Positions 12,066-63,830 of a stretch of 64,000 bases of DNA are shown one piece after another. The translations under genes were made by a program, and so were the position numbers. Source of the stretch: Verrucomicrobiia bacterium (GTDB lineage: Bacteria > Verrucomicrobiota > Verrucomicrobiia > Limisphaerales > UBA11358); NCBI GenBank assembly GCA_035545995.1, contig DASZXH010000053.1:188521-252520 (forward strand), given 5' to 3'. The notes under the pieces are model-generated. The model ran no database searches. It worked only from the letters and a program-made list of their open reading frames with translations, and was not told where the DNA came from. How positions within the stretch are numbered: the first letter of the stretch is position 1; every line of letters starts with the position of its first letter.

Positions 12066-12143
12066 CGGAGCGTAGCTCAGCCTGGCTAGAGCACTTGCTT
12101 TGGGAGCAAGACGTCGCAGGTTCAAATCCTGTCGCTCCGACCA
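12066..12143 (+). tRNA. tRNA-Pro (anticodon UGG), CCA encoded
   Basis: Manual cloverleaf: acceptor CGGAGCG/CGCTCCG, D arm GCTC..GAGC, anticodon stem CTTGC/GCAAG with loop TTTGGGA (anticodon TGG), T arm GCAGG-TTCAAAT-CCTGT, discriminator A, CCA. Confidence 0.9.
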
Positions 12144-12156
12144 TTTTCCCTCTTTT
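12116..12156 (+). repeat. att-like core, copy 1 (tRNA-Pro T arm to 13 nt past CCA)
   Basis: gcaggttcaaatcctgtcgctccgaccattttccctctttt recurs at 54653..54693 with 40 of 41 nt identical, and in degenerate form at 63789..63830. Confidence 0.85.
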
Positions 12157-12764
12157 GACTCCTCCTGCCGCGAAGTGACAAACAGTGACTCTGACCGCAT
12201 GAACACAGGAGATTTTTCAAATTGCACCTGCGCGGGTGAAGTGACAGCCAATGCCCCGTTTTGACCCGTTGCGACCGAATTTTGTGAGTCTCTTTGTGCG
12301 TCATTTTTCGATGAAATTTGCGCGCGATGGAAATCCAATTTTTCAATCGCTTCTTTCAATGGCAGCATCTTCGCGTCTGTGTAAGTCTTGGCAGTTTGTT
12401 TCGGATCGCGATGTCGCATGAGCGCCATCCGCACGCACTCGCTCGGCGTTCCGGGCGCAAGTTGAGTGCAATATGTGACACGAAAGCTGTGGAAGTCCAA
12501 GCGTCCGTCGCCGCGGTCTTCCCAATCAATTCCAGCCGCCTTCAGGTCGGCATAAAATTGTATGTAGCCAGGGAACCATCCCTTTGGTCTGCGAACCTCG
12601 CCGGAGATGACCCAAAGCGCAAATGTAATTGAACGAAACGTGACCCGATTTCGATACCAAAAGGGTTGATCGCAGGATCTGTTTGGATAGCGACTAGCAC
12701 ATTGAACAGGCATTCTAAAATTGGAATCCGAAATTAAGCTACCCATACTACAGGCGTAGAGCAA
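12150..12764 (-). pseudogene. Tyrosine recombinase (phage-type integrase), C-terminal catalytic part only
   Basis: HSFRVTY (HxxR), MRHRD (His) and KTYTD (Tyr) are present. There is no N-terminal SAM-like domain and no clear first Arg. The ORF reads on through the antisense tRNA (GKWSERQDLNL). The 5' end abuts box A. Confidence 0.7.
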
Positions 12765-12810
12765 TCCTACCCTAATATCTTAATGACAAGTTTGAATAAG
12801 CTGACCATAT
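12748..12810 (+). promoter_or_regulatory. Conserved upstream box, copy A
   Basis: CTACaggcGTAGagcaatcctaCCCTAATatcttaATGACAAGTTTGAATaagcTGACCATat; ATG at 12836. Confidence 0.75.
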
Positions 12811-12835
12811 TACAAGTGGATTCCGATTACAATTT

Positions 12836-13657
12836 ATGAACGTGAATTTCATTAAAAAAATTAGAAATCAGTTTAACGGTTTTACACTAATTGAACTTTT
12901 AGTAGTTATCGCCATCATTGCTATTTTGGCGGCTATGTTGTTGCCCGCTTTGGCTGCTGCAAAAAGAAAAGCACAGATAGCGTCCTGTATGAACAATCTG
13001 CGGCAAATTGGCATTGGTATGACGGTGTATGCTGGTGATAATCAAGACTATGTTTTGTCAGCGCGTCCATCAAATCCGAATACTCCCGCAGGTCAACCAG
13101 TGTCATTTAATCAAAGAGCCTTAAACCCGCCACAAGCATCCTCGGCAAGGCAAGTCAATTTGGACCCGACACTAACCAATGGGCCTTCAATCTGGTGTTG
13201 TCCGTCTTTGCCATCCAAGGGCAATGGGTTACCAGCATACGACTCCTCCAACCAGCAATGGTTAATTGGTTATCAGTATTTTGGTGGTATTACTTGGTGG
13301 TATAACACCGCCTTTTCGAGTGGCACTCCGGCTTACAGTCCAGTGAAACTGGGTAATTCCAAAAGCTCTTGGGTTTTGGCGGCAGATGCTCTGTGCAAAT
13401 TTATTCAAGGAGGTGCCTCTGCAACAAGTTGGAACATTGGCGTTCCTGCTGGTGTCCCCCACCAAAAGTCAGGGACCAAGCGCCCCGATGGTGCTAATGA
13501 ACTCTTGATTGACGGTTCGGTGTCATGGGTCAAATGGGAGAATACTTTGCAGCTTACTGAATATAGCGCGACTTATGAAAACGACTATTTTTATCAAAGT
13601 GATCTTCCTTCGGTATTCACCTCGTTCGTCATCAAGAACCTCGTCCCTACTCCGTAG
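12836..13657 (+). CDS. Prepilin-type N-terminal cleavage/methylation protein, DUF1559 / H-X9-DG type
   Basis: [25 protein letters not shown] is the type IV pilin-like leader. C-terminal [21 protein letters not shown] resembles the H-X9-DG motif (spacing here is X8). Confidence 0.85.
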
Positions 13658-13709
13658 TTGGAGTTAATGCCATGAACACAAGGAGTAAACATGCTCTTTT
13701 CAATAGAAT

Positions 13710-14345
13710 TTAATCCAAATGAACGATTCCCCTCTGTAACGCGGTTGTGACTGCTTGGGTGCGATCATGCACTCCGAGCTTGGCCAATATGTTACCTACG
13801 TGCAATTTGGCTGTCACTCTTGCAATTGCTAATTCGGCGGCGATTTCCTTATTGCTCCTTCCCTTGGCCATCAATGCCAAAACGTCCATTTCACGAACGG
13901 TTAAATCCGAATGTCTCGTCCGGTCAGCCAGACGACTGGCAACGGTTGGCGAAATACGACGTTCACCTGCATGAACCGCTCTAATGGTCTCAATCAATTC
14001 GTTGCGGGAAGCAGATTTGAGCAGGTATGTGCAAGCGCCAGCCTGGAGCGAACGGTAGATGTCTTCCTCGCCGTCATACGTCGAAAGCATGATAATGGCA
14101 GCCGATGGAAATTCCTTGCAGATTGTCTTGGTGGCATCAACCCCGCTGATGCCGGGAAGTTTCAAATCCATCATGACAATATCAGTTTTATGGCGGCGAT
14201 ACAAAGTGATGGCTTGCTCGCCAGTAGAGGCCTCGCATTCAACGACCATGTCCGGTTCCAAATTAATGGACGCAATTAATCCCATTCGGACAAGAAAATG
14301 GTCATCTACCATCATCACCCGGATTTTTTTTGCGTTAGAATTCAT
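13710..14345 (-). CDS. NarL/FixJ-family response regulator (REC + LuxR HTH)
   Basis: IRVMMVDDH, IVMMDLKLPG (phospho-Asp present), LTVREMDVLALMAKGRSNKEIAAEL. Overlaps the kinase gene by 4 nt. Confidence 0.9.
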   Translation of the reverse strand: MNSNAKKIRVMMVDDHFLVRMGLIASINLEPDMVVECEASTGEQAITLYRRHKTDIVMMDLKLPGISGVDATKTICKEFPSAAIIMLSTYDGEEDIYRSLQAGACTYLLKSASRNELIETIRAVHAGERRISPTVASRLADRTRHSDLTVREMDVLALMAKGRSNKEIAAELAIARVTAKLHVGNILAKLGVHDRTQAVTTALQRGIVHLD

Positions 14346-16564
14346 AGTTGAGGTGGAGAGACAATTCTAGTTTCTTTCCATTGAGATTCAGCTTTAGCGG
14401 CAGAGTTAAGGTCCTGTTTCTCCGCAATTTCGACTCGGATTTCAGTTCCCTGCGTCGGAGCGCTAATTACAGTGAAACGTCCTCCCATTTTCAGGACACG
14501 TTCTCTCATATCCTGCAATCCAAAATGACCTCCATAAATATATGATTGATTGTCAGGATGAAAGCCCACCCCATCGTCTATGACACGAAGGCATATCTTG
14601 TCTGAATTATATTCGAGATGAACGACAATTTGCGATGCTTGAGCGTGTTTAACCGCATTTGCCAGGGCTTCCTGGGCTATGCGCAACAGATTATTTTCGA
14701 CTGGCAAAGGCAGTTTACGCGGTGTGCCATTGCTTTCGACGGAAATGGCGACGCGGGCATGAGTTCCCGCTATCCTAGCCACACCGGAAAGGGCATCGGT
14801 AAGATTGCTGTTTTCCAGCAGGTGCGAGCGTAAATCCCACACCGAGCGACGCGCCTCAAACAGACTGTGTCTAGTCATGTTACGTGCCAGTTCAAACATC
14901 TGACGCGCAACGTGCGGGGCCGTGTCAAATTGAGAATCCGCCGTTTCCAATTGAATTGAGATTGCCGCCAGTTCCTGTTCGAGAGTATCGTGAAATTCGC
15001 GGGCGATACGAGTGCGTTCCTCAAATATAGCTTCTCGTTGAACTTTTTCGCTAATCGTGACCGTTTGTTCATGAACTTTTCGGTTCAACTCAAAAACCCA
15101 GCAGAAACCCGCCAAAAGAATTATGCTCACAATGCCAAGCAGCCAGAACAAACGTGAGAGTGTCCACCAAGGGGGATTTCGGACGACAATAACGTCATTC
15201 GGAGACCGCAACAGCAATTGAAATGCTTCCGGGGCTTTTTGTTGCGCAAGGCCCCAATTTTCCACCGGCTGAATCATAGGTTGCGCCACGCATACGCCGG
15301 TTAATTCCAACTCACTGCCTTTTTGCAATGCGAAAAAGCGGTTGTCGGCTCTGGCGGAATCTATCTGCGCATTAAGAATGATATTTGAGGTTTCCATAAT
15401 CAGAATTCGCTTGCCGCCCTCTTCAATCTGATCGGTTAGCCGCGCTCGCAATTGAATTAGCACATTGTCGTAATCTTCCGAAGGCAATTGGCCGCTGTTG
15501 ACCTGCACCGGTTTGGGCCCGGATTGATGTCCAATAATATTGAAAACAGCGTCTTCCATTTCTGGCGCAAATTCTCCCAAGACGGGAAAACCAATCACCT
15601 CTACAATGTCACCCACTGACACATGGTTTGTTTGCACACCCTGCACGTGAAGGCCAGTACCTGCGTTTTGAATAAAAAGCGAGTTCTCATTCACTTCAGT
15701 GACAGTGCCCCGGACTTTGATTCGTTGTCCGTAATAACCTCCGAAATTGAACTGTGCCAAACTGTCCAGTGGCATTTCGGAAATTTGTCCCGGAGCGGTA
15801 GCCTCAATCACGAGGTCCGAGCGGCTGGTTACACTCAAATAAGGAGCACATATCTGCCGCTTTTTATTAAACAGCGTCCGACAAACTCCCTGAACGCGAA
15901 TGGTGGTGCAAACCAATTCCTGAGCCTTCGCGGGGCTTAAATTGAAATGCTCGATTTGCACGGCCAGCCGCCGGCCGTTGAGAAGGATGTTCAGACACGC
16001 CCGATTGGTCCCGATGGGAATGACGGAACGAACAACGCCTGCAAGTTCAATCCACTGGCAATCTTCTCTGCCGCCTGCCAGTTGTTCGTAATCGAAATGC
16101 AGTGGTGTTGGCAATGTTGTCCGACCAAGGATGCGCATATGCTTCGCAAAAACCACGGGCAGATAATCACCCCGTTGAGTAATACCCTCAACTTCCACCT
16201 CATCTCCGGCGGTGACGTTGGTCGCCTCATCCAATTGAACGATTCCCTGACCCAATTTCACAAAAATAGCCGCAGTGGAATCTTGCAGAAACAAACCAAC
16301 ATCATTTTCAGCGTCGTAATAGGTAACCACACCGCGTAACCGCACCGGATATTCTTGAGCCGCCCCATCCGGTGACATTTCCCTCACTTGTTGGGCTGAC
16401 GTCAGGAAAGGTCGTTCGGGCGCCGCATTGGCACAGAAACACACAAAACCACACAGCAGTGTGAAGACGACAAGAGCAAGAGATGCTTCAACATTAAAAC
16501 GCCATACTTTCACAAAAAGCCTTCTGCCATATTTCGACCAAAACATCAATGCAGAAAACATCAT
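14342..16564 (-). CDS. Sensor histidine kinase (HisKA_3/NarX-DesK type) with a ~450-aa extracytoplasmic N-terminal domain
   Basis: N-terminal TM, a long periplasmic region, a second TM (WWTLSRLFWLLGIVSIILLAGFCWVF), the H-box REFHDTLEQELAAI, and HATPase motifs (DDGVGF, GHFGLQDMRER). Confidence 0.85.
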   Translation of the reverse strand: MMFSALMFWSKYGRRLFVKVWRFNVEASLALVVFTLLCGFVCFCANAAPERPFLTSAQQVREMSPDGAAQEYPVRLRGVVTYYDAENDVGLFLQDSTAAIFVKLGQGIVQLDEATNVTAGDEVEVEGITQRGDYLPVVFAKHMRILGRTTLPTPLHFDYEQLAGGREDCQWIELAGVVRSVIPIGTNRACLNILLNGRRLAVQIEHFNLSPAKAQELVCTTIRVQGVCRTLFNKKRQICAPYLSVTSRSDLVIEATAPGQISEMPLDSLAQFNFGGYYGQRIKVRGTVTEVNENSLFIQNAGTGLHVQGVQTNHVSVGDIVEVIGFPVLGEFAPEMEDAVFNIIGHQSGPKPVQVNSGQLPSEDYDNVLIQLRARLTDQIEEGGKRILIMETSNIILNAQIDSARADNRFFALQKGSELELTGVCVAQPMIQPVENWGLAQQKAPEAFQLLLRSPNDVIVVRNPPWWTLSRLFWLLGIVSIILLAGFCWVFELNRKVHEQTVTISEKVQREAIFEERTRIAREFHDTLEQELAAISIQLETADSQFDTAPHVARQMFELARNMTRHSLFEARRSVWDLRSHLLENSNLTDALSGVARIAGTHARVAISVESNGTPRKLPLPVENNLLRIAQEALANAVKHAQASQIVVHLEYNSDKICLRVIDDGVGFHPDNQSYIYGGHFGLQDMRERVLKMGGRFTVISAPTQGTEIRVEIAEKQDLNSAAKAESQWKETRIVSPPQL

Positions 16565-16620
16565 TACACATCGTGCTCATCTAATCATTCGAGTCAACCA
16601 TACATTTGGATAAAAAAAAA

Positions 16621-16690
16621 CTATGCCATAGGCGTAGAACAAACAAACCCCAATGCCGTTGTGACAAATTTGAGTGCTTTGGCCAGAATC
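16621..16690 (+). promoter_or_regulatory. Conserved upstream box, copy B
   Basis: CTATGCCataGGCGTAGaacaaacaaaCCCCAATGccgttgTGACAAATTTGAGTgcTTTGGCCAGaat; start codon at 16706. Confidence 0.8.
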
Positions 16691-16705
16691 GCACAACCTA
16701 TATAG

Positions 16706-18886
16706 ATGACCATGAAATTTTGTTTGTTCTTATTTTGTCTAACAATCGTCTCTTTCGTGTCCGGCGCAGAAACTCCGCCACTTTACCTCAATAGCAATCA
16801 GCCCATTGAAACGCGGGTTGACGATTTATTTTCACGAATGACGCTTGAAGAAAAAATTTCACTCGTTCACGCCAATACAACATTTACCACCGCCGCCATT
16901 ACTCGCCTGGGCGTCCCTTGCCGCTGGATGGATGATGGTCCGAATGGCGTGCGCGAGGACATCAGCCCGAATAGTTGGAATTCCGCTGGTCGCACAGACG
17001 ATTTTTCGACGGCCATGCCCGTCGGTATTTGCCTCGCGGCAACATGGAATCCCGATTTAGCTTACGCGGAAGGCGAAACCATCGGCGAAGAAGCCCGCGC
17101 CCGAGGTAAAGACATCATGTTGGGGCCAACGGTCAACATCATGCGGACGCCATTGTGGGGGCGTAACTTTGAATCCTTCGGCGAAGACCCCTTCCTCACG
17201 TCAAAGACGGCCGTTGGTTTTATCCATGGCGAGCAATCGCAGGATGTGTCTTCCTGTGTGAAACACCTCGTCGCCAATAATCAGGAGAGTGAACGCGGCA
17301 GCATAGATGTGGAGATGAGCGAGCGAGCGTTGCGGGAGATTTATCTGCCGGCGTTTAAGGCTGCCGTGCAGGAAGGTGGCGTTTTGTCAGTCATGGGCGC
17401 TTACAACCGGTTCCACAATCAGTATTGCTGCGAAAACGATTATTTGCTTAACCAAATTCTGAAAGGTGAATGGGGCTTCAAAGGTTTGGTCATGTCCGAT
17501 TGGGGCGGCGCGCACGACACGCGAGACGAAGCGATAAATGGCCTTGACCTCGAAATGGGCCTTGATAGCAAACTCGGCGGAATCAAGAGTTACAATAATT
17601 GTCATCTGGCGCAGCCCTACCTCGATTTGCTCCAAAAAGGCGAATTGCCGATGTCGGGACTGGACGACAAAGTTCGTCGCAATCTGCGTGTGATGTTCGC
17701 CACGCATGTTTTCGATTCGGGGCGCACTAATGGTTCGCTCAATACCGTTGCTCATCAAATGGCCGCCCGCCGGATCGCCGAGGAAGGCATCGTGCTTTTG
17801 AAAAACAAAAATCATTTGCTGCCGCTCGATTCGGCCAAAATCAAAACCATCGCTGTCATTGGCGAAAATGCGATTCGTCTTCAAGCCGACGGAGGCAACA
17901 GTTCGGGCATCAAAGCCTTTTATGAAGTCACGCCGCTGCAAGGCATCTTGAATCGAGTTGGTAAAAACGTGAATGTGACTTTTTCCGAAGGTTATCAGAA
18001 AGACGGCGACGCGCACTTGGCTGAACGCGCCATTGCTGCGGCGAAAGCTGCCGACGCAGTTATCTATATTGGCGGCTTGAACCATGATTTAGGCTTCGAT
18101 TGCGAAGGCGCCGACCGCAAAGATTTGGACCTGCCGTATGGCCAGAACAAATTGATTTCACAAATTGTCGCGGCTAATCCACGTACCGTTGTGGTGGTGC
18201 TCGGCACGCCCGTTGCGATGAATTCCTGGCTCGAGCAAACGCCGTCCGTCTTGCAAGCGTGGTATTTGGGCATGGAAGGTGGCAATGCTTTGGCGCGTGT
18301 CCTGTTCGGCGACGTGAACCCTTCCGGCAAATTGCCCTGCACCATTCCGAAACGGCTAATGGATTGTCCGGCTTTCGCAGATTGTCCAGTTACTTATCCG
18401 GGAACCAATGGCGTCGTAACTTACAAAGAAGGTTTGCTTGTCGGTTATCGCTGGTTTGACACCCGGCACATCACGCCGCAATTTCCATTTGGTTTCGGCT
18501 TGAGTTATACGACGTTCAAATACTTGAACTTAAAATTGGTTGCGGGAGATGGAACGAATGCGCTGGTTGTCGCACAGTTTGAAATTCAAAACACCGGCGC
18601 GCGCGACGGCGCGGAAGTGGCGGAACTTTACGTTCACCAAAACCATCCGGGTCTGCCGCGTCCAGAAAAGGAATTGAAGGGATTCAAAAGGGTATTTTTG
18701 AAGTCCGGTGAAACGCAAACCGTTTCCATTCCACTGAACTTCAACGCATTTGCGTTTTACGATCCAGCGCAAAAAACATGGATTGCGGAAAAGGATGATT
18801 TCAAGATTTTGGTCGGCAGCTCTTCGCAAAACATTGCGTTGAAAGATGATTATCGGCTGGCGGAAACGCTCCGGGAAAAAGATTGA
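16706..18886 (+). CDS. GH3 beta-glucosidase (BglX-like) with C-terminal FnIII-like domain
   Basis: Signal MKFCLFLFCLTIVSFVSGA, KHLVANNQE, and GFKGLVMSDWGG (GH3 nucleophile region). The C-terminal ELKGFKRVFLKSGETQTVSIPL is typical of the FnIII-like domain. Confidence 0.9.
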   Translation: MTMKFCLFLFCLTIVSFVSGAETPPLYLNSNQPIETRVDDLFSRMTLEEKISLVHANTTFTTAAITRLGVPCRWMDDGPNGVREDISPNSWNSAGRTDDFSTAMPVGICLAATWNPDLAYAEGETIGEEARARGKDIMLGPTVNIMRTPLWGRNFESFGEDPFLTSKTAVGFIHGEQSQDVSSCVKHLVANNQESERGSIDVEMSERALREIYLPAFKAAVQEGGVLSVMGAYNRFHNQYCCENDYLLNQILKGEWGFKGLVMSDWGGAHDTRDEAINGLDLEMGLDSKLGGIKSYNNCHLAQPYLDLLQKGELPMSGLDDKVRRNLRVMFATHVFDSGRTNGSLNTVAHQMAARRIAEEGIVLLKNKNHLLPLDSAKIKTIAVIGENAIRLQADGGNSSGIKAFYEVTPLQGILNRVGKNVNVTFSEGYQKDGDAHLAERAIAAAKAADAVIYIGGLNHDLGFDCEGADRKDLDLPYGQNKLISQIVAANPRTVVVVLGTPVAMNSWLEQTPSVLQAWYLGMEGGNALARVLFGDVNPSGKLPCTIPKRLMDCPAFADCPVTYPGTNGVVTYKEGLLVGYRWFDTRHITPQFPFGFGLSYTTFKYLNLKLVAGDGTNALVVAQFEIQNTGARDGAEVAELYVHQNHPGLPRPEKELKGFKRVFLKSGETQTVSIPLNFNAFAFYDPAQKTWIAEKDDFKILVGSSSQNIALKDDYRLAETLREKD

Positions 18887-18918
18887 AGGGCAAAACAAAT
18901 TGGGATCGGGTTGCCTGG

Positions 18919-19899
18919 ATGCGGCGACTTCACTATGTTACGGATATGCAAAGGCCATCCCATGAATTTGCGGAGACGCTGGCCCCAATTACACCTTTGG
19001 ACACCGAGCCGGAGAGATTGGTGGTCCGCCCCAAACAGGTCAAGATGCCCGAAGACGGCTTGGTGGTTTTTGAAAGCCGGCATGGACCGGGCTTTTTCGG
19101 CGACCTGAAAGATTCATATTCCAAATTCCACTTGGTGATTCGCGGACGGGCGCAATGGGATGCCGGCGGGCGGAGTTATACGACCGCGCCGGATGTGCTT
19201 TTCCATATCGCGGCGGGCGTGCCGCATCGGATACGTGATGTGCCGCACGATCCGGTCTCCAATTACGTCATTCATTATCAACCGCAACTGCTGGACAAGG
19301 AACTGATGGAGCGGTTCGCGAAGCCTCCGGGCATTGTGCTGTTGAATCTGGCGAGCGCGGATTTGCAGCAGGCGGCTCCCATCCGTTCACTTTTCCGCGA
19401 GATGCTTTTTGAATCGGACGCTCAACAACCGGGTTGGAAGGTGCTGTTGAAATCGCGGTTGATTGAGCTTGCGGTGCGCACACTGCGCATGATGGAACGC
19501 CGAAATCAAAACGCGATGGTCTTCAAAGTGGGCAGTGACAGCATGGAACGCGTGACCCATTACGCGCTGCGTTTGAAATCATGTTTTTTCCGTCAACAGA
19601 CGCTTGAGGAAGCGGCCAAATCCGTTCATTTGAGCCGGCGACAGTTCACCGATTTATTCCGGCGGGTGACGGGAAAATCATGGCGGCGTTACATTAGAAC
19701 TTTGCGCCTTGAATATGCCGCCCGGTTGCTGGCGAACACAGATAAATCAGTCATTGCGGTGGCTTTCGAGGCCGGGTTCGAGGACCTTTCCCAATTCCAT
19801 CACAACTTCAAGGAAACTTACGGTTGCACGCCGTCGAATTATCGTGAAATGCATCAACAGCCATTTCACCCCGGCGCGGACTCTCTTTCGCATGATTAA
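18919..19899 (+). CDS. AraC-family transcriptional regulator (cupin + HTH)
   Basis: C-terminal LEEAAKSVHLSRRQFTDLFRRVTG..RLEYAARLLANTDKSVIAVAFEAGFEDLSQFHHNFKETYGCTPSNYR. ATG 18919 chosen; a TTG at 18883 overlapping the GH3 stop is an alternative. Confidence 0.85.
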   Translation: MRRLHYVTDMQRPSHEFAETLAPITPLDTEPERLVVRPKQVKMPEDGLVVFESRHGPGFFGDLKDSYSKFHLVIRGRAQWDAGGRSYTTAPDVLFHIAAGVPHRIRDVPHDPVSNYVIHYQPQLLDKELMERFAKPPGIVLLNLASADLQQAAPIRSLFREMLFESDAQQPGWKVLLKSRLIELAVRTLRMMERRNQNAMVFKVGSDSMERVTHYALRLKSCFFRQQTLEEAAKSVHLSRRQFTDLFRRVTGKSWRRYIRTLRLEYAARLLANTDKSVIAVAFEAGFEDLSQFHHNFKETYGCTPSNYREMHQQPFHPGADSLSHD

Positions 19900-20109
19900 A
19901 AACGCCGTGCAACTTTCTACGAATAGAGTTTTAACCACTCGGCAAATCCGCAAAAGTTGAACGTGTTCACGTGTTTGTGGACTCTTTGAAAAAGTGAATT
20001 TTCTGAAACAAGGTGAGGAGTTACGGACTTGGCGTCACAGCCCAAAACTCCAATCATAATCGCCTGAAAACATACGACAGCCGACAAGAAGTTGTGCTAA
20101 AAAAGTCGG

Positions 20110-20538
20110 ATGATTCTCGGTCGTATTCTGCATCCGGATATTCTATCGGCTCTGGGAAAAGCCGGCCACGGAAGCTGCGTTCTTATCGCCGACGGAAATT
20201 ATCCGTTTTCAACTCATTCTCCCGCCAGCGCCACGAAGGTATTCCTAAACCTTCGGCGCGGACTGGTAAAAGTGACCGATGTTTTGGAAGTGTTACGGGA
20301 CACGGTTCCTATCGAACAAGCAACACTGATGGCAACGTATGACGGCCAACCGGCAACAATCCATCGTGAATTTTCTAAACTACTATCCCAAGACGTGCCA
20401 ACCCGAACGCTGCCGCGGGCTGAATTTTACAGCGCAGTGAACCAACCAACGACGACGCTCGTCATTGCCACCGGCGAAGAACAGCGTTTTGCCAACATTT
20501 TAATCACCATCGGCGTCGTCAAATCGGACAAACCATGA
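20110..20538 (+). CDS. fucU: RbsD/FucU-family sugar mutarotase (L-fucose mutarotase-like)
   Basis: ILHPDILSALGKAGHGSCVLIADGNYP..VFLNLRRGLVKVTDVLEVL matches the RbsD/FucU signature. Confidence 0.75.
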   Translation: MILGRILHPDILSALGKAGHGSCVLIADGNYPFSTHSPASATKVFLNLRRGLVKVTDVLEVLRDTVPIEQATLMATYDGQPATIHREFSKLLSQDVPTRTLPRAEFYSAVNQPTTTLVIATGEEQRFANILITIGVVKSDKP

Positions 20539-21566: not shown

Positions 21567-21593
21567 ACGAATTTTCGGAGCACGGTTGAATTT

Positions 21594-54399: not shown

Positions 54400-54693
54400 T
54401 GAAATGTTGTCATGCTTATTGAGCGCGTTGAAAATGAATCAAACAATTCAGGATTTAAGTCATCATTTGCCTCCGTTCATTGAGAAGACTCTTTCACTGA
54501 CGTGGCGATGGCTAGAATGGCTGCTTTCAGCGAATCGGGAAGTTTTTTCCATGCGGGGACAACTTGAGACAAATCATGTCCTAACACGACCGGAATTTGT
54601 GAGTCTCTTTGTGTGTCACCGGTTGGATTTCTCAAAGAATCGGCAGCTTTTTGCAGGTTCAAATCCTGTCGCTCCGACCACTTTCCCTCTTTT
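54400..54693 (+). repeat. 294-nt module, copy 2: integrase-tail-like segment followed by the tRNA-Pro 3' core (54653..54693)
   Basis: Collinear with 63537..63830 along its whole length. The core gcaggttcaaatcctgtcgctccgacca is identical to tRNA positions 12116..12143. The minus-strand frame reads GKWSERQDLNLQKAADSLRNPTGDTQRDSQIPVVLGHDLSQVVPAWKKLPDSLKAAILAIATSVKESSQ-stop. Confidence 0.85.
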
Positions 54694-54700
54694 TGTGAGT

Positions 54701-55972: not shown

Positions 55973-55981
55973 CAGTTTCTT

Positions 55982-56812
55982 TTATTTTTTCTTGCCCTTG
56001 TCGTCCTGACGTTTTGACGGCGACAACGCTACGGATGCTTCGCTGGTCAAAACGCGGAAAACAAAAGTTTCCTGAAGATACAGCCGCACGACGGATTCGG
56101 TGTGGCCGAGATAGCCGATGGAGACATCCTGTCCGATGCTCAACTGGAAATCGCCGCCGCGCGTGGTCAGGACGAACGCGCCTTCAATCGCCGGTGCCCA
56201 GACGAGATCGCCGTCCACGATGCGTTTGACGTGTTCGAGGACGGGATAGCCTTGATCGCGGGTTTCGGCGAGCGCGGTGTATTCGTTGGCTCCAAGCACG
56301 ACGGAGTAGGGGCCGTTCACGCCGACGAGGCGCAGTTGACTCAAGGCGCGGGCGATGGCATCGGGATAATCGCGCACGTCCGCCGGCAGCGCGTCAATGG
56401 GATTGCTCGTGCCTTCGCGAATGCCTTGAATGCCGGCTTCGCGGTAGCCATTGAAAATGGCGCGGTCTTCGGCGAAGGCGAGTTTCTTCGCGGCATCTTT
56501 TGCGGGCTGCCAATTTGAATCGTTTGATCCGCGCTCCACGTCGTCAATGGTCTGGCGGGACAGTTCAAACGGCACGCGCAATTCGACGAGCGGCTTGACC
56601 TCGCGCTGATGAGCGACGATGCCGGCGGCGGGAGCGGCAATGGATTTCAAATGTCCGGTCGCAACTCCCGGCTGGGCGATGCCGCCGGATGCCGGAACGT
56701 CCACCACGCGCCGTCCGGCCAGATACCGTTTCAGCGTTCGCGTCGTTTCGTCCTCGATTTGCGACCAGGCTGCGTCCGAGATGGGCGCGAGTTTTCGATG
56801 AAGGTTATTCAT
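55982..56812 (-). CDS. Family 1 encapsulin shell protein (linocin M18-like)
   Basis: MNNLHRKLAPISDAAWSQIEDE..LKRYLAGRRVVDV..VELRVPFEL..GYPVLEH are encapsulin hallmarks. It overlaps by 8 nt an upstream DyP gene that carries a targeting peptide. It has an unusual Lys-rich C-terminal tail, SPSKRQDDKGKKK. Confidence 0.9.
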   Translation of the reverse strand: MNNLHRKLAPISDAAWSQIEDETTRTLKRYLAGRRVVDVPASGGIAQPGVATGHLKSIAAPAAGIVAHQREVKPLVELRVPFELSRQTIDDVERGSNDSNWQPAKDAAKKLAFAEDRAIFNGYREAGIQGIREGTSNPIDALPADVRDYPDAIARALSQLRLVGVNGPYSVVLGANEYTALAETRDQGYPVLEHVKRIVDGDLVWAPAIEGAFVLTTRGGDFQLSIGQDVSIGYLGHTESVVRLYLQETFVFRVLTSEASVALSPSKRQDDKGKKK

Positions 56813-57872
56813 GTTTTTTTCCTTTCAGTGATCCGATGTTCAGTGACGCCTCGCGCGCGGGCGAAGGCGATGGTTGATTTGATTCGGTCGTCGGATTGTC
56901 CGCCGCCGGAGACGGTGCTTCGTCCCCAAGATTATCCAGAAAAGTCGCGGACGGCGCAAAAAATAAACTGCCGGTGACCGGATGGCTGAAATCCAAAAGC
57001 CGGTCGTAGTTGCCCGGCGGTCGTCCGATGAACATATTTTCGAGCATTTGTTCCGTGATGCGCGGCGTCCGGCAGTAGCCGATGAAGTAAGTGCCAAATT
57101 CGGCGTGACCGGGTTTGCCGAAGGGCATGTTGTCGCGCAGAATTTTCACTTCTTTGCCGTTCTCGGTGATGGTCGTCAACTCGTTGTGGGCGTAGGGCGC
57201 TTTCTCCGCGTCGCTGATCTCGATGTCGGAAAGTTTTTTGCGTCCGATGATGCGTTCCTGCATTTCCGTGGGCAACGCGTTCCATCGGCTCATATCGTGC
57301 AGGTATTTTTGAGTGATGACGTAACTGCCGCCGGCGAATTGCGGATCATCTTCACCAACGAGCGCGGCGTCGTAAGCGGCCTGCGCGCGCGGATTTTCCG
57401 TGCCGTCAACGAAGCCAAGCAAGTCGCGTTCTTCAAAATAGCGGAAGCCGTGAGTCTCATCCGCCACCGAAACCGCTCCGCCGATGCGCTCCATGATTTG
57501 AGTCGCCAATTCAAAACACAAATCCATTTTCTTGGCGCGGATATGAAACAAGACATCGCCGGGCGTGGCAACGGCATGGCGTTCGCCCGCGCGGAATTCG
57601 CGAAACGGATGCAGTTCGGCGGGACGCGGTTTTCCGAAAAGCCTATCCCACGCCTCCGAGCCAAAAGCCGCGACACAGGAAAGGCCGCCTTCCATGCGCC
57701 GGAAATCCACCGCGCGAAAAATTCCCGATAAATCCGCGCACAGCGAACGCACGGTCGCGCAGCTTTCGTTATCCGGTTTGATGCAGACCACCAGAAAAAT
57801 CGCGGCGCTGGTCAGCGGCGCGAGAATGGGTTGGGCGATGGGTGTTGAATCTTCTCCGCTGGCTGTGCTCAT
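56805..57872 (-). CDS. DyP-type peroxidase with C-terminal encapsulin cargo-loading peptide
   Basis: DyP motifs FVDGTENP and GSYVITQKYLHD. A Pro/Ser-rich linker is followed by SLNIGSLKGKKHE, matching the SLxIGSLKG targeting-peptide consensus. Confidence 0.9.
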   Translation of the reverse strand: MSTASGEDSTPIAQPILAPLTSAAIFLVVCIKPDNESCATVRSLCADLSGIFRAVDFRRMEGGLSCVAAFGSEAWDRLFGKPRPAELHPFREFRAGERHAVATPGDVLFHIRAKKMDLCFELATQIMERIGGAVSVADETHGFRYFEERDLLGFVDGTENPRAQAAYDAALVGEDDPQFAGGSYVITQKYLHDMSRWNALPTEMQERIIGRKKLSDIEISDAEKAPYAHNELTTITENGKEVKILRDNMPFGKPGHAEFGTYFIGYCRTPRITEQMLENMFIGRPPGNYDRLLDFSHPVTGSLFFAPSATFLDNLGDEAPSPAADNPTTESNQPSPSPAREASLNIGSLKGKKHE

Positions 57873-58078
57873 GTGAATAGTTTTAATTTCTGCCCTCTGT
57901 CGTTACATATAACAACCGTCCGTCTGGAAATCAAAGTTTGAAAGGCGCATAACGTCCAAAGCCGAACCACGCCGACGGGCGAGCGGCTCCGCTGGCTTGA
58001 TAATCGTTGTATCACTCAAACCATCCATAAACTCAAGGGGCAGTCGGGTTGGCTTCAGCGCAGTGTTAGGCCTCTGTC

Positions 58079-58852
58079 TTACTGCACCGTTTGCCCACCA
58101 TCAATCACCATAGCGTGGCCGACCATGAAGGCGGCAGCGTCTGAACATAGCCATATAACAGCCGCTGCAATCTCCTCGGGTTTGCCCATCCGTCCAACCG
58201 GCTCCTCCGCGACTACCTTCGCGCGTCCTTCCGATGTGTCACCAGTGAAGCGACTCATCATCGGCGTATCAATGTATCCCGGACAGACGGCGTTGATGCG
58301 AATCTTTTGCGCCGCATAATCGAGCGCCGCCGCTCGCGTGAGACCGATCACGCCATGCTTCGCCGCAGTGTATGCCGGGCTGCCTTTGATGCCGATTACT
58401 CCAGCACCCGATGAAGTATTCACGATTGCGCCGCCCTGCTTGAGGATGAGTGGAATCTCGTGTTTCATGCACAAGAAAACGCCGCGAAGGTTGATGTCGA
58501 AGATGCGGTTCCACTCTTCCTCGTCATAGTCCGCAGTCGGAGCGGGCTTCTTCGGTTCGATTCCGGCGTTGTTGAAAGCGAAGTCCAGCCGTCCGAAAGC
58601 CTCAATGGTCTTGGTCATAGCCGCTTTTATGTCCTCGGCTTTCGTCACGTCGCAACGAACGGCGATTGCCCGTCCTCCTTGTTCCTCAATGAGGCGGACG
58701 GTCTCTTGATTATTGCGCTCGGACACATCAGCGGCCACCACGCTAGCACCCTCGCAAGCGAACGCCAATGCTGCTGCTCGTCCGATGCCGCTCGCGGCTC
58801 CAGTCACGAATGCGACCTTTCCAGCGAAGCTTCCGTTTCGATTCGTTGTCAT
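58079..58852 (-). CDS. Short-chain dehydrogenase/reductase (SDR)
   Basis: TGAASGIGRA (cofactor motif), NNAG, and the catalytic YTAAKHG. Confidence 0.85.
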   Translation of the reverse strand: MTTNRNGSFAGKVAFVTGAASGIGRAAALAFACEGASVVAADVSERNNQETVRLIEEQGGRAIAVRCDVTKAEDIKAAMTKTIEAFGRLDFAFNNAGIEPKKPAPTADYDEEEWNRIFDINLRGVFLCMKHEIPLILKQGGAIVNTSSGAGVIGIKGSPAYTAAKHGVIGLTRAAALDYAAQKIRINAVCPGYIDTPMMSRFTGDTSEGRAKVVAEEPVGRMGKPEEIAAAVIWLCSDAAAFMVGHAMVIDGGQTVQ

Positions 58853-58973
58853 ATTTATTTGTTAATCCTTTCAATCTTATTAGTTAACGGTCAGTGTCTT
58901 CCAAGCTTTGCAGCGTATTCATAGCATAGCAAGTGCGCTGCAAAGGCCTGACATTTGTTTCTGCATTCAGAGT

Positions 58974-60413
58974 TCATAATATCGGCCCAAGCATGGCAAG
59001 GGTATTGTTCCAAAACTTTCGCGGCAAGGGCCATGTTTCAACCGCCGCGCGTGTGACCGGACGCGACCGCGCCAGAAACTCCCGTTGCCGGTCGTGCAGC
59101 GCGCCCGTAAGTTCCGCATCGTAAAGCAGGATGTTGTTCTCATAATTCAATTCAAAACTGCGCCGGTCCATGTTCGCCGATCCAATAAGGGTGATTTCGC
59201 CGTCGAGCGTGAGTGTCTTGGCGTGCAACAAGCCGCCAACGTATTCGTGAATCTCCACGCCCGCCGCCAGCAAGTCGGCGTAATAACTGCGGCTCGCGCC
59301 AGCCACAATCCACGAGTCATTGCGTGCGGGGAAGATGATGGTCGTTTTCACGCCGCGTTGCGCCGCCGAGCACAACGCATTTTGCAACGATTCATCGGGC
59401 ACATAATAGGGCGTCGTAATCATCAATTCCCGCCGCGCCGCGTAAATCAGCGATTCAAACGTCTCCGGCATCGCCGAGAATCTGGCGGTGGGGCCGGTGC
59501 CAATGACCTGCGCCGGAAAACCCGGCGACGCTGACGGCCACGGCAGCCGCAGCAGGTTGTCGAGATTTTCATTCGTGGCGCTCATCCAATCGCAGGCGAA
59601 CAGCCGCTGATTCTGGCGGGCAATCGGCCCCTCGAACCGCATCATCACATCCACCCACGGCGCAAATTTCGCCTTCACGCGGAATTCCGGGTCGGCGCAA
59701 TTCTGGCTGCCGCAATAGGTGATGCCGTTGTCAATCACCACGATTTTGCGGTGGTTGCGCAGATCAATCCGGCGAAATGGCACTCGCAACAGTGGATGAT
59801 TGAGCGCCAGCGCCACGCCCGTTTTTACACCGGCGGACTGTATCGCACGCCACATGTCTGACTTCAACAGGGCGCGGGAACCGAGTCCGTCCACCATCGC
59901 CCGACATTGCACACCACGCGCTGCCGCCCGCTTGAGCGCGTCAGCGATGCGGTTTCCGTTTCCGTCCGTCAACCAGATGTAGAACAGCACATGCACGTGC
60001 TCCTTCGCCGCGTTAATATCCGCCACCATCGCCGTGATTGCCGCATTGGAATCCGCCATCAGCCGCGCTGAATTTCCTGCGACTGGTTCAAAGCCGCTGA
60101 TGGAATGTCCGACACGAAACAAGGCTTCGTATCGTTCGGGAATTTGCGCGCGTAAGTTCAACTGTTCCGCCGCGCCTGATTCGGGTGGCGGCATACTGCG
60201 TTCAACTGCCCGCAACTTCTCCAGCCGCCGCCGACCGATGTTCACCTCACCAAACAGCATGTAAGCGACCACGCCGATCATGGGGAGCGCCAGAATCACC
60301 GCCAGCCAGGCGATGCGCGATGCCGGTTCACGATGCGGGCGCAACATCACACGCACCAACACCGCGATCTCAATCACGATGCCGATTGCCAAAAGGTAAG
60401 ATGGCGGATTCAC
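58974..60413 (-). CDS. cls: Cardiolipin synthase
   Basis: Two N-terminal TM helices and two HKD motifs (HRKIVVIDN.. and LHAKTLTLDGEITLIGSANMD). Confidence 0.9.
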   Translation of the reverse strand: MNPPSYLLAIGIVIEIAVLVRVMLRPHREPASRIAWLAVILALPMIGVVAYMLFGEVNIGRRRLEKLRAVERSMPPPESGAAEQLNLRAQIPERYEALFRVGHSISGFEPVAGNSARLMADSNAAITAMVADINAAKEHVHVLFYIWLTDGNGNRIADALKRAAARGVQCRAMVDGLGSRALLKSDMWRAIQSAGVKTGVALALNHPLLRVPFRRIDLRNHRKIVVIDNGITYCGSQNCADPEFRVKAKFAPWVDVMMRFEGPIARQNQRLFACDWMSATNENLDNLLRLPWPSASPGFPAQVIGTGPTARFSAMPETFESLIYAARRELMITTPYYVPDESLQNALCSAAQRGVKTTIIFPARNDSWIVAGASRSYYADLLAAGVEIHEYVGGLLHAKTLTLDGEITLIGSANMDRRSFELNYENNILLYDAELTGALHDRQREFLARSRPVTRAAVETWPLPRKFWNNTLAMLGPIL

Positions 60414-60440
60414 TTTGTATGGCGGTGAACTAATTTGGAA

Positions 60441-60614
60441 TCATTTGGTTTTTACCATGGCTTGACACAGATACAGGGTGCTTTCGTCGGGCACAAATGC
60501 GAGGGAAACTGAACCAAATGGCTGAAAACCATCCTCGATTAACTTGTTAATCCGATTTTGAAATGCTTCAACGTCATGGTCCAAAACGGATTTATATTCA
60601 GTGATTGTTTCCAT
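60441..60614 (-). CDS. Small DUF1737-like protein (57 aa)
   Basis: Below the ORF-track cutoff. My translation is METITEYKSVLDHDVEAFQNRINKLIEDGFQPFGSVSLAFVPDESTLYLCQAMVKTK, from ATG 60614 to a TGA stop at 60441-60443. Confidence 0.5.
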   Translation of the reverse strand: METITEYKSVLDHDVEAFQNRINKLIEDGFQPFGSVSLAFVPDESTLYLCQAMVKTK

Positions 60615-60711
60615 AAATTGTATGGCGAATTTATTTCAAGATGCGGCTTGCATGGGTTAGAAGCAATTACTGGCTTTGAATTTATATTGACGGCCAAAGC
60701 TTGGTAAGAAT

Positions 60712-61053
60712 TCAAAACCTATTTTTATGAATCCGAAGGAAATACGTTTCGGCTCGTAATTTTTCTATCTCATTCAAAAAGGATAGAATCATTTTAATAT
60801 CCGCCAGATTTTTTCCGTAGGCTGCCCGCATGGATTCGAGACGGCGCAGTATTTTGATGCCAATGCCATCAAAATAAAAGCCTTCGCTGTTTGGATTCCC
60901 GACCGGCGATATCAGGCCATGCTTGCAATACACGGCAATCATGCGGCGCGGCACATGGGTGATTCGTTCCGTTACTTCGATTGAATAGATGACATTTGGT
61001 TCCGGTTCAAAAAGCTGGATGGCGCGAAAAGAATTTTCGTTGGCACAGCTCAT
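60712..61053 (-). CDS. MerR-family (CbpM/HspR-like) transcriptional regulator
   Basis: YSIEVTERITHVPRRMIAVYCKHGLISP HTH and ILRRLESMRAAYGKNLADIKMIL. Start set at ATG 61053, because the upstream part of the track ORF overlaps fdh. Confidence 0.65.
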   Translation of the reverse strand: MSCANENSFRAIQLFEPEPNVIYSIEVTERITHVPRRMIAVYCKHGLISPVGNPNSEGFYFDGIGIKILRRLESMRAAYGKNLADIKMILSFLNEIEKLRAETYFLRIHKNRF

Positions 61054-61127
61054 AAATTTGATTCCAGATTTGAGGCGATCATTCAAATGCTTGTCGCGGT
61101 TCAAAGCGCGAAAATCAAAGCCATCAG

Positions 61128-62288
61128 TCAAGTCAGCTTGTAGGAACTCGCGCCGGTGCCCGCAAGCGTTCCGCCTTTGACGATGAGATATTCCTCGCGA
61201 ATGGGCGTGCCGCTGAAATAACTTTGGAGAATTTCCAATGTTCCGGCGGCATAACGCGTCTGCGCCGAGAGGGACGTGCCCGAAATGTGCGGCGTCATTC
61301 CATTCCAAGGCATGGTTCGCCACGGATGGTTTGATGGAGCCGGTTGGGGAAACCACACGTCGCCGGCATAACCGGCAATCTGACCCGATTCAAGCGCCCG
61401 CACCACAGCGTCGCGTTCGACGAGTTTGCCGCGCGCGGTATTGATGAGATAGGCGCCGCGTTTCATTTTTGCGAACATCGCGTCGTTGAAGAAATTTTCG
61501 GTTGAGGGATAAAGCGGCATTTGCAGGTTGACGATGTCAACCGCTTTTATCAACGACTCCGCATCCGGGTGATAGGTCAAATTCAATTCCTTTTCAACGT
61601 CCGGACTTAAGCGATGCAGGTCGGTGTAATGCAGGCAGAGGTCAAAAGGTTTGAGTCGGCGCAACACCGCCAAACCAATTCGCCCGGCGGCGATTGCGCC
61701 GAAGTGCATCCCTTCGACATCGTAGCTGCGGGACACGCAATCGGCGATGTTCCAAACGCCATTGGCGGCGAGGTTGTGGGACGGTAGATAATTCCGCACC
61801 AGCGCCAGAATCGTCATCACGACGTGCTCGGCGACGCTGATGCTGTTTGAGCCGGTCACTTCGGCGACAGTGACATGGGCGCGGGCGGCGGCGGCAAGAT
61901 CAACGTGATCGGAACCGATTCCAGCGGTCAGGGCGAGTTTCAATTTCTTGGCTTTGGCGATTCGCTCCGGCGTCAGATAGGCCGGCCAGAACGGCTGGGA
62001 AATCACAATTTCGGCATCAGGGAGATGTTTTTCAAATTCCGAATTGGGAGCATCTTTGTCGCTGGTTACAATCAGTTCGTGTCCCAACTTTTCCAGATAG
62101 GGGCGAAGTCCCAGTTCGCCCGAAACGCATCCGACGAGTTCGCCGGGTTTGAATCCGAGCGGGCCTTTTGGACTCGGAGCGGTTTGGCCGTTGGCATAAC
62201 GAGTGATGGTCGGGATTTCGTCGCGGGGATAAATCGGCGGGAATCCGGTTGACGGATCGGGATAAAGGACACAAAGAATTTTTGCCAT
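61128..62288 (-). CDS. fdh: NAD-dependent formate dehydrogenase
   Basis: MAKILCVLYPDP..GELGLRPYLEKLGHELIVTSDKD..QPFWPAYLT..AGIGSDHVDL..VAEVTGSN is near-canonical FDH sequence. Start at ATG 62288. Confidence 0.9.
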   Translation of the reverse strand: MAKILCVLYPDPSTGFPPIYPRDEIPTITRYANGQTAPSPKGPLGFKPGELVGCVSGELGLRPYLEKLGHELIVTSDKDAPNSEFEKHLPDAEIVISQPFWPAYLTPERIAKAKKLKLALTAGIGSDHVDLAAAARAHVTVAEVTGSNSISVAEHVVMTILALVRNYLPSHNLAANGVWNIADCVSRSYDVEGMHFGAIAAGRIGLAVLRRLKPFDLCLHYTDLHRLSPDVEKELNLTYHPDAESLIKAVDIVNLQMPLYPSTENFFNDAMFAKMKRGAYLINTARGKLVERDAVVRALESGQIAGYAGDVWFPQPAPSNHPWRTMPWNGMTPHISGTSLSAQTRYAAGTLEILQSYFSGTPIREEYLIVKGGTLAGTGASSYKLT

Positions 62289-62510
62289 GATTTGAATGCG
62301 TTTTATTGAATTTATAGACGGTTGCCTATGCTCCTGCCGCCCACCAATAAAAAATGCCATCCTTCTCTCGAAAGCGTCCAATCGTTTGTTTGAATCTGGT
62401 GATAACCAACAGTTATCACGCTGGCCAATGCCGTTTTAAGCTGTTCGATAAGAATGATTTGAATCAAACGGACGGCATCGCCATGAAGCGGCACAGATAA
62501 ACGGCGCTTA

Positions 62511-63428
62511 TCACGCTGGCTTTATTTTCGCAAGCGGCTCGTTAAGGATGGATTGAAGGTCCAGTTTGGTTGCAATTTGCCAGGCGGCAGTGGACAGCGC
62601 GGGCTGAATCTCGCGCCGAAGTCTAATCAAACAGACATTTTCGGCGTGTTCAGGAGTGATTGAATGGATGCGTAAGCCAACTCCATCATGTTGTGTTGGC
62701 ACGGCGCTGAGGGGCATGATAATAAACGCTCGCCCGCTTCTGGCTTCGAGCAGCAAAACGTGGAGAGCATTGGTTTCCAGCACCACATTGGGCGTAGCTT
62801 CAACTTTCTTAAAAATCTCATCTAGCGTCCGTCGGTTCTGCATGTCGCGGCTGAGCAGACACAACGGCAAATCAGCGACTTCCGCCCAGTTCAGTTGGCG
62901 GGGAAGTGACGCCTGCTCGCTGGCAATCAAAACATAACGTTCCGAAAATAACGGAAGCACGTCATAATCATCACCGGTGACTGATCTCCCATAAAGCATC
63001 GCCAGATGAAGGTCTTGCGATTTCAATCGCTGTAAAATAACGGATGTGCTGAGGGAAACCACTTCAAGCGTCAGTTGAGGCAACATTTCCCGATATTGCG
63101 CGCTAAGCAACGTAGCGGCGTGACTTGCGGTGGGAATCATGCCGATGGCCAGATGTCCCCGCGGCACGCTACGAATCAAATCAGCCTCTTGTTGAAGCCC
63201 TTTCAGTGAGGCCAGCACATTACGAACCCAAAGGATGACGCGCTCGCCTTCCGGCGTAATGCCTTCAAATGTCCGATTGCGCTTGATGATGGTGATGCCG
63301 AGTTCGCGCTCCAACTCTTTGATTCCATTCGACAACGCCGGCTGCGAGACATGACAACTCTCCGCCGCCCGGCCAAAATGCCGATGTTTGTCCAAGGCGA
63401 TGAGGTAATTAAGCTGGCGTATGAACAT
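62511..63428 (-). CDS. LysR-family transcriptional regulator
   Basis: N-terminal HTH LNYLIALDKHRHFGRAAESCHVSQPALSNGIKELERELG plus a LysR substrate-binding-length C-terminus. Confidence 0.9.
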   Translation of the reverse strand: MFIRQLNYLIALDKHRHFGRAAESCHVSQPALSNGIKELERELGITIIKRNRTFEGITPEGERVILWVRNVLASLKGLQQEADLIRSVPRGHLAIGMIPTASHAATLLSAQYREMLPQLTLEVVSLSTSVILQRLKSQDLHLAMLYGRSVTGDDYDVLPLFSERYVLIASEQASLPRQLNWAEVADLPLCLLSRDMQNRRTLDEIFKKVEATPNVVLETNALHVLLLEARSGRAFIIMPLSAVPTQHDGVGLRIHSITPEHAENVCLIRLRREIQPALSTAAWQIATKLDLQSILNEPLAKIKPA

Positions 63429-63536
63429 TCGGAATATTTATTTTGGCAACGTGGACGAGGTCAATGGCGATCATTGCCATAACAATTGAATAACAATAGA
63501 TTTGAAAATTAAATAGTTAAATCTCGAAAACAATTG

Positions 63537-63830
63537 TGAAATGTTGTCATGCCTCTTGAACGTGTTGAAATGGATGAAACAATTCAGGATTTAGGTTCGT
63601 CGTTTGCCTGCGTTAATTGAGAAGAGTCTTTCGCTGATTTGGCAATGGCAAGGATGGTTGCTTTCAGTAAATTGGAAGTTTTTCCATGCGGCGACAACTT
63701 GGGACAAATCATGTCCTAACACGACCGGAGTTTGTGAGTCTCTTTGTGTGTTACTGTTTGGATTTCCTAAAGAATCGGCAGTTTTTTTACAGGTTTCAAA
63801 TCTTGGCGCTCCGACCATTTCTCTTTTTTT
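63537..63830 (+). repeat. 294-nt module, copy 3, with a degenerate tRNA-Pro 3' core (63789..63830)
   Basis: Collinear with 54400..54693. The core is acaggtttcaaatcttggcgctccgaccatttctcttttttt. The minus-strand frame is still open through the core (..TADSLGNPNSNTQRDSQTPVVLGHDLSQVVAAWKN..) and then frameshifts relative to copy 2. Confidence 0.8.

Follow-up and report, generated by a model that had tools for sequence, protein, structure and literature searches.

The DNA analysed here, a 64,000-nt window of contig DASZXH010000053.1, comes from a soil metagenome-assembled genome (MAG) of Verrucomicrobiia whose own proteins are numbered HVU085xx. The 3′ end of a tRNA-Pro gene recurs twice downstream of that gene and delimits a 42.5-kb stretch (segment 1) followed by one of 9.1 kb (segment 2). 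We conclude that these repeats are very probably attachment (att) scars of a tRNA-Pro-specific integrase family, and that the reading of the locus as tandem genomic islands holds. The window would show part of a decayed array, its segments inserted by site-specific recombination into the tRNA-Pro(TGG) 3′ end, an integration hot spot in this Verrucomicrobiia clade.

Repeats of the tRNA-Pro 3′ end

The tRNA gene and the three att cores are placed as follows (window positions throughout).

12066-12143, + strand: tRNA-Pro(TGG), intact, the only tRNA gene in the window (ARAGORN and Rfam); acts as attL of segment 1
12116-12156, + strand: att core copy 1 (3′-terminal 28 nt of the tRNA plus 13 nt)
54653-54693, + strand: att core copy 2, 40/41; serves segment 1 as attR and bounds segment 2 on the left
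63789-63830, + strand: att core copy 3, degenerate, 34/42, with one inserted T

The 28-mer at 12116-12143 has an exact second copy at 54653-54680, while no match appeared in 100 dinucleotide-preserving shuffles with up to 3 mismatches allowed. When extended by 13 nt, cores 1 and 2 were identical at 40 of 41 positions, and core 3 matched core 1 at 34 of 42 once a 1-nt insertion (T) was permitted. The identical recurrence, its 13-nt extension and the degenerate third copy, all reported by a first-pass annotation of the sequence, were therefore reproduced with the same figures. A direct repeat of 294 nt, which the first-pass annotation had not noted, spans 54400-54693 and 63537-63830 and terminates on the right in cores 2 and 3. 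Core 3 is not a chance match, because the ~250 nt to its left (the X arm) are 87.6% identical to those left of core 2, with an abrupt onset of similarity at TGAAATGTTGTCATGC, and because a related genome shares this degenerate copy, extra T included, at the corresponding place. The core 2 junction was matched at 100% by a contig from an independent Logan assembly (L007, window 52990-57993).

Arms, motif pairs and the integrase remnant

The sequences flanking the cores carry the parts of one integrase gene and pairs of a short motif.

12157-12586, − strand: P′ arm, 3′ remnant of the integrase gene (residues 275 to about 430 of 469), its frame continuing through the antisense tRNA
12281-12302, + strand: pair of 10-nt sites TTTGTGAGTC/TTTGTGCGTC in the P′ arm, predicted arm-type integrase sites
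54400-54652, − strand: P arm (X arm) of segment 1, carrying the integrase tail in frame with the core
54480-54652, − strand: integrase tail within that P arm, ending in ...GHDLSQVVPAWKKLPDSLKAAILAIATSVKESSQ, stop codon at 54477-54479
54596-54617, + strand: TTTGTGNGTC site pair in the P arm of segment 1
63537-63789, − strand: P arm of segment 2 (X′), tail frame broken by a frameshift
63731-63752: motif pair in the X′ arm, second site degenerate

The first-pass annotation had recognised a truncated tyrosine integrase beside the intact tRNA, and this was borne out. The remnant open reading frame (ORF) was 60-83% identical to Phage_integrase proteins and aligned to residues 275-440 of a 469-aa member of a tyrosine integrase family; its match to the Pfam Phage_integrase domain was weak when taken alone (E=0.007). 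Nucleotide homology with eight full-length integrase loci ended at 12584-12586, and therefore the N-terminal 274 codons have been lost, leaving the last ~155 codons of a 469-aa protein. In the full-length protein the catalytic domain spans residues 186-346 of 469, and no other integrase pieces were found in the window. The remnant is dead. Since the single integrase gene of the window has lost the codons for 274 N-terminal residues, the array would be immobile unless a related integrase acted in trans.

The 10-mer TTTGTGNGTC, also missed by the first-pass annotation and paired at a spacing of 12 nt, was common to all three att places, 137 nt right of the tRNA and ~36 nt left of cores 2 and 3. 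It occurred at 5 sites in the window versus 0.86 expected, all on the + strand and only at att places, and a related pair lay on both sides of the core in contig L008, which is described below. The pairs are candidate arm-type binding sites of the integrase. Rfam gave no matches in the arms.

The tRNA-Pro locus in related genomes

The window was compared with 102 species-representative loci sharing the tRNA-Pro gene. In at least 60 of these, lytB was located ~1.4 kb upstream of tRNA-Pro. The site was empty in 26/102 loci, with glnB 223-452 nt downstream of tRNA-Pro and usually amt and glnA after it; inserts of 1.3-3.6 kb preceded glnB in 7 more. Eight of the 102 loci had a full-length integrase of this family directly 3′ of tRNA-Pro, none with a second core copy within the 8-kb blocks. 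This survey of empty, insert-bearing and integrase-occupied sites therefore identifies lytB-tRNA-Pro-glnB as the ancestral arrangement, and the locus sequences indicate that the tRNA-Pro 3′ end is a recurrent integration site of this integrase family, a hot spot across the clade. At locus L001 the integrase was interrupted by an insertion sequence (IS) element, with glnB-amt-glnA ~5 kb further on. A more distant contig, L002, showed three cores: the first in the tRNA, the second beside a remnant of an integrase and the last with an X-like arm before it.

The related MAG SMAG_U6172 (contig DASZXB010000009.1, loci L004/L022) carried segment 2 at 90% nucleotide identity. Its homology to the window began exactly at the core, within an intact tRNA-Pro preceded by lytB. 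An empty site with tRNA-Pro joined to the sequence right of 54693 had been proposed as a test by the first-pass annotation, and this is the junction found, placed exactly at the core. At the far end of segment 2, L004 retained the X′ arm and core with the inserted T. Transfer of segment 2 between distant genomes had been considered, as the housekeeping proteins of the relative had no cluster mates at ≥90% identity; it was rejected, the LytB of this MAG being 96% identical to that of SMAG_U6172 and simply forming a cluster by itself.

The lytB-tRNA-Pro-glnB locus would accordingly be a hot spot of gene gain in abundant uncultured soil Verrucomicrobia. Here ~50 kb of accessory genes occupy it, with functions that include glycan breakdown and a stress module of encapsulin and DyP; they are absent or differently arranged in the closest relative.

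Six of the tRNA-Pro contigs (L029, L035, L037, L041, L069 and L084) were in MAGs labelled Pseudomonadales, Bifidobacteriaceae, Bifidobacterium, Sulfotelmatobacter, Acidoferrum and Sulfopaludibacter. Some of them had lytB upstream or glnB downstream, and these non-Verrucomicrobial labels are probably binning errors. Two loci, L030 and L088, were copies of lytB-tRNA-Pro-glnB in opposite orientation on one 14,462-bp contig, and another two, L033 and L060, were copies on two contigs of a single MAG bin. These doubled loci may be duplications of assembly or binning, or real ones.

An integrase reading frame that crosses attP

In all homologues of the remnant the ORF ran on through the antisense tRNA-Pro (...WSERQDLNLRRLAPKASALA...; ...KEGKWSERQDLNLRRLAPKASALA...). 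When the X arm and core 2 of the window were joined to the P′ arm, a single open frame of 215 codons was restored, and the same tail followed a core in ORFs of other genomes (P0030-P0032). A single ORF, P0033 on contig L008, contained the C-terminal catalytic region of the integrase, a motif pair, the tRNA 3′ fragment, a further motif pair and the tail; this contig has the tRNA 3′ fragment without the full tRNA, which is the attP configuration. P0033 was then used as a query against 1.8 billion cluster representatives. The 201 matches fell into three classes, namely whole, integrase half (query 1-101) and tail half (query 88-153), and the boundary between the half-only classes was the core. 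The attP configuration was present in nine further cluster representatives with different tRNA cores. In an alignment of ten 'whole' members (A3), the embedded tRNA-antisense stretches differed and the tail pattern W..L......A.L.I was invariant. A scan of Joint Genome Institute (JGI) metagenomes for the motif-core-motif pattern yielded two contigs of the tRNA-Pro subfamily, neither with a tRNA: L117 encoded a 469-aa integrase whose ORF crosses the core, and L116 the complete tail.

These sequences show that attP lies inside the integrase ORF in this family and that integration relocates the tail-coding part. The frame of the free element passes the core and ends ~58 codons into the P arm, in the conserved tail. 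On integration this tail is detached from the gene and left at the opposite end of the island, and the integrated integrase gene then reads into the antisense tRNA. By analogy with the myxophage Mx8, where attP also lies in int and integration creates a new 3′ end, the tail may alter integrase activity. Full-length integrases of the family matched only the generic Pfam domain (PF00589) and, weakly, Xer-type NCBIfam models. No prior description of a tail conserved across many tRNA targets was found in the literature searched, where the feature appears to be undescribed.

Contents of segment 1

12587-54399: segment 1 cargo, comprising a prepilin-like gene, a two-component system, glycoside hydrolases (GH3, GH9, GH29, GH31 and GH2), sugar catabolism and large YDG/MBG and PEP-CTERM surface proteins

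A conserved box had seven matches between 12768 and 43683, all on the + strand, upstream of genes and in segment 1. The box, AACCCYAATR-N5-RTGACAART, sits within a ~65-nt repeat and is preceded by the palindrome CTAYRCC...GGYRTAG. It looks like a promoter or operator common to one regulon. Segment 1 had been credited in the first-pass annotation with every copy of the box and with the whole glycan-degradation cluster; the boxes are indeed confined to it, but GH genes were also found left of the tRNA.

Within the cargo, 31925-32635 and 41017-41724 are paralogous stretches, 74-82% identical, one in a 767-aa ORF and the other in a 941-aa ORF with YDG domains. Multiple internal repeats of ~150-300 nt were present in the three large YDG/MBG surface-protein genes at 37563-45348.

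Contents and age of segment 2

54694-63536, − strand: segment 2 genes, encoding NDH-2, encapsulin and DyP peroxidase, SDR, cardiolipin synthase, DUF1737, a MerR-like protein, NAD-formate dehydrogenase (FDH) and LysR

The GC fraction of segment 2 was 0.546 versus about 0.50, and its tetranucleotide distance was 24 versus 7.5-13.6 for equal-sized chunks from the rest of the window. The same contrast appeared in SMAG_U6172 (0.547 in segment 2 versus 0.498 on the lytB side), so segment 2 stands out in composition in both genomes. The k-mer comparison proposed by the first-pass annotation thus singled out segment 2 clearly, but segment 1 matched the left flank. That flank is itself accessory, and the window contains no core-genome sequence with which to compare.

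The reading frame of the segment 2 tail was broken both in the window and in L004, where the tail matched in two separate pieces. Since the relative has the X′ arm and core, the same inserted T and a broken tail frame, segment 2 and its scar predate the split of the two genomes. The idea of an old, decayed insertion consequently holds for segment 2, in which core 3 and its arm have decayed alike in both genomes. Segment 2 would be the older insertion, held in common with a related species, and would have lost its integrase and P′ arm. The X arm at core 2 was 87.6% identical to its neighbour at core 3 and 90.1% to the X′ arm of the relative, and the orthologous X′ pair was 91.8% identical. The arm at core 2 is no closer to its neighbour than to the arm of the relative, and therefore did not arise by recent local duplication.

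The encapsulin shell gene lies directly downstream of the DyP peroxidase gene, its cargo pair, at 55982-57872 (− strand). In segment 2 of the relative, DUF218 takes the place of the SDR gene and a DUF308 gene is added. An exact look-up of the window's LysR gave no match. FDH proteins at least 90% identical pointed to unrelated gene contexts, a single contig carried NDH-2 together with FDH, and in the unrelated contig L009 a LysR-FDH-DyP-encapsulin block adjoins IS1595 and resolvase genes. The right flank of the array (DUF2292 and a sulfate-binding protein) was not found near tRNA-Pro in any other species.

Left flank and a second tRNA-Pro copy

1-12065: right part of the DNA left of the window's tRNA ('segment 0'), with GH2, a LuxR-type regulator, NagB, a broken GH20 gene and an AAA_30 remnant
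9953-11157, + strand: broken GH20 hexosaminidase gene in at least 2 pieces (Pfam positions 1-117 and 247-343 of 348), a pseudogene beside NagB
11407-11751, − strand: AAA_30 remnant, 114-aa ORF covering the middle of the domain (E=3e-7), of the relaxase/RecD-type helicase kind

The LytB of this genome, HVU08521, shares its 253,103-bp contig with HVU08533 (window 2462-3292). It precedes HVU08533 by 12 accession numbers and HVU08540, whose gene comes first on the right side of the tRNA, by 19. In Logan contig L115, from the same sample, a lytB for exactly this protein is followed by the conserved spacer and then by 29 nt of the 5′ end of tRNA-Pro; the contig stopped exactly where its 31-mers become common with the window's tRNA. 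These data place a second tRNA-Pro copy, or at least its initial 29 nt, next to lytB, separated from the window's tRNA by ~18 genes: segment 0, with ~18 annotated proteins, measures roughly 20-25 kb. On this contig evidence, the window's tRNA-Pro is an internal and not the outermost junction, and the array extends further left. The first-pass annotation had taken tRNA-Pro as the end of the array. Its intactness and attL role stand, but the tRNA is internal, with the lytB junction ~18 proteins upstream. A complete tRNA at this place may mean that an island of a different kind entered at the 5′ part of the tRNA, that an element brought a whole tRNA copy, or that the DNA was rearranged.

The AAA_30 ORF just upstream of the tRNA looks, by its domain match, like the remnant of a conjugative or mobilisable element. 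Further left, a ~165-nt direct repeat (1686-1848 and 3243-3408, 85-91% identical) brackets the ORF 2023-2334, which has a transposase-like helix-turn-helix (HTH) N-terminus, and most of the PEP-CTERM gene 2462-3292.

Alternative explanations

We weighed the tandem-island reading against three other explanations. It is exceedingly unlikely that the repeats match by chance or belong to a dispersed family without link to integration. Apart from the empty shuffle test, the repeat was always located at tRNA-Pro or beside this integrase family or its tail, so that the scattered distribution which the first-pass annotation had named as a refutation was not seen; no point in favour of this explanation was found, and it was discarded. 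Another explanation is that a small element left both att ends and that the 42-kb glycan cluster came later or replaced its interior, through an event that was not site-specific and that removed the 5′ 274 codons of the integrase gene as well. Several observations fit this history and weigh against the movement of segment 1 as an island. No mobility gene besides the 12157-12586 remnant was found among the genes scanned, and the composition of segment 1 is that of the left flank. Its cargo begins where the integrase homology is cut, abruptly at 12586, with the first box of the glycan regulon soon after, at 12768. Moreover, those related elements whose full extent is visible are small (~5 kb) and carry toxin-antitoxin or Rep genes. 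However, SMAG_U6172 lacks any part of segment 1 and has a clean junction between tRNA and segment 2, and therefore a single event at the core is the simplest history. The box regulon is also restricted to the DNA between the two att ends, and the joined ends of segment 1 give one reading frame. We regard a later filling or replacement of the interior as unlikely, and lean slightly towards the view that the 42.5 kb of segment 1 moved as one unit with this integrase. Segment 1 would be the later arrival, by recombination at the core where the tRNA adjoined segment 2, unless the relative lost it by precise excision.

The remaining points against tandem islands concern segment 2, the two predicted functions and the left junction. 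No integrase or P′ arm was found in segment 2, and the NDH-2 gene stops at a distance of 7 nt from the core. A direct joint of the tRNA to the sequence right of 63830, one of the empty sites that the first-pass annotation had proposed, was not seen in any genome, and for segment 2 alone no empty site was found. The binding role of the 10-nt motif and the function of the tail are predictions. Left of the window's tRNA lies accessory DNA instead of the lytB of related loci, with no similar flank among the 102, and 3′-end integration does not leave complete tRNA genes at internal junctions. In addition, Logan contigs broke at the window's tRNA on both sides, those of two samples both stopping at 12118 from the right; the left junction therefore depends on the MAG assembly alone. 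The unmatched flank and the contig ends at 12118, together with the two tRNA-Pro contexts in the same sample, would also fit a larger rearrangement or a metagenome misassembly across the repeated tRNA, by which segment 1 and the left flank were misplaced. Against this, lytB is part of the same contig, with the order and orientation that would be expected, at the accession distance from HVU08533 given above, and the right junction was independently confirmed by L007. The contig name of the related MAG denotes MEGAHIT at k=141, which exceeds the shared stretch of ~92 nt, and the MAG of the window was presumably assembled alike. A 42,685-bp Logan contig from the second sample starts at 12118 and was seen over 12118-28886; its length would carry it past core 2. 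We thus consider a misplacement of segment 1 and the left flank quite improbable, and retain the tandem-island reading.

Comparison with known elements

Genomic islands in tRNA genes, and arrays of such islands, are textbook material. As in the arrays catalogued by Islander, an intact tRNA gene (tDNA) marks one end of the locus, and 3′ fragments of the tDNA have been displaced with their orientation kept (PMC4383910). The intact tDNA at one end of the island is accompanied by a cognate 3′ fragment of the same orientation at the other. Further likenesses to Islander islands are a tyrosine integrase beside the tDNA, a crossover in the T-stem/acceptor part and a site that is empty in relatives (PMC4383910): it was unoccupied for segment 1 in L004 and as a whole in 26 species. 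For Islander, every member of an accepted array must carry an integrase, and among its 3919 islands, arrays with at least three members turned up only 4 times; 159 of its islands were at the 5′ part of a tRNA gene (PMC4383910). Unlike in those arrays, only one segment here has an integrase, as a remnant (the last ~155 codons in segment 1, none in segment 2), and an extra complete tRNA copy lies inside the array. The tandem array of the first-pass annotation therefore stands as a series of att-bounded segments, but segment 2, without integrase or P′ arm, is not a full member by Islander's rule. Segment 2 has att sequences at both ends and no recombinase or transfer genes, and is in tandem with an integrase-bearing neighbour, like the cis-mobilizable elements (CIMEs) described with integrative and conjugative or mobilizable elements (ICEs and IMEs) (PMC5704250). 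We call it CIME-like because site-specific accretion followed by decay would give this pattern. It differs from CIMEs in that the integrase of its neighbour is truncated and the host belongs to Verrucomicrobia, not to the Firmicutes ICE/IME systems (PMC5704250). Neither a relaxase nor type IV secretion, as expected of an ICE, was found among the scanned or Pfam-marked genes of segments 1 and 2. Similarly, no phage structural or replication genes and no IMG/VR relatives were found that would indicate a prophage, and for an intact element the sole match among its genes was a weak one to HTH_17.

For the integrase, the closest parallels were Mx8 and the SSV-type elements. In Mx8, attP lies within int and a new 3′ end is formed on integration (PMC6070905; Tojo et al. 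1996 via PMC4383910); Islander notes the attP-in-int arrangement for both Mx8 and SSV (PMC4383910). As in Mx8 IntP, attP here is in the 3′ part of the integrase ORF and integration supplies a new 3′ end to the gene (PMC6070905), the core lying inside the ORF downstream of the catalytic tyrosine in L008, L116, L117 and the A3 members. Unlike in Mx8 IntP, a conserved tail of ~35 residues is kept across elements with different tRNA targets, and the hosts of the gene are small cryptic islands, none of them found in IMG/VR. SSV-type integrases also have the recombination site inside the integrase ORF and a gene split by integration, whereas here the catalytic domain (186-346 of 469) stays whole and only the C-terminal extension is exchanged (PMC7253208). 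In terms of class, the locus is a decayed, now immobile island array of established type, and an integrase frame across attP has precedents in Mx8 and SSV.

More speculatively, and with considerable doubt on our side, these elements may represent a widespread undescribed family of Verrucomicrobial integrases, in which attP lies in frame and a conserved tail of ~35 residues is swapped for tRNA-antisense residues as a putative switch between integrative and excisive or inactive forms. If so, one such element would have carried a self-contained 42-kb regulon for glycan utilisation between soil Verrucomicrobia. The family would be good material for studying how an attP within the integrase gene might control integration versus excision, given that attP inside the integrase has so far been known mainly from Mx8 and SSV-type elements. 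For annotation, many 'hypothetical proteins' that run through an antisense tRNA-Pro or an X arm are halves of one integrase gene.

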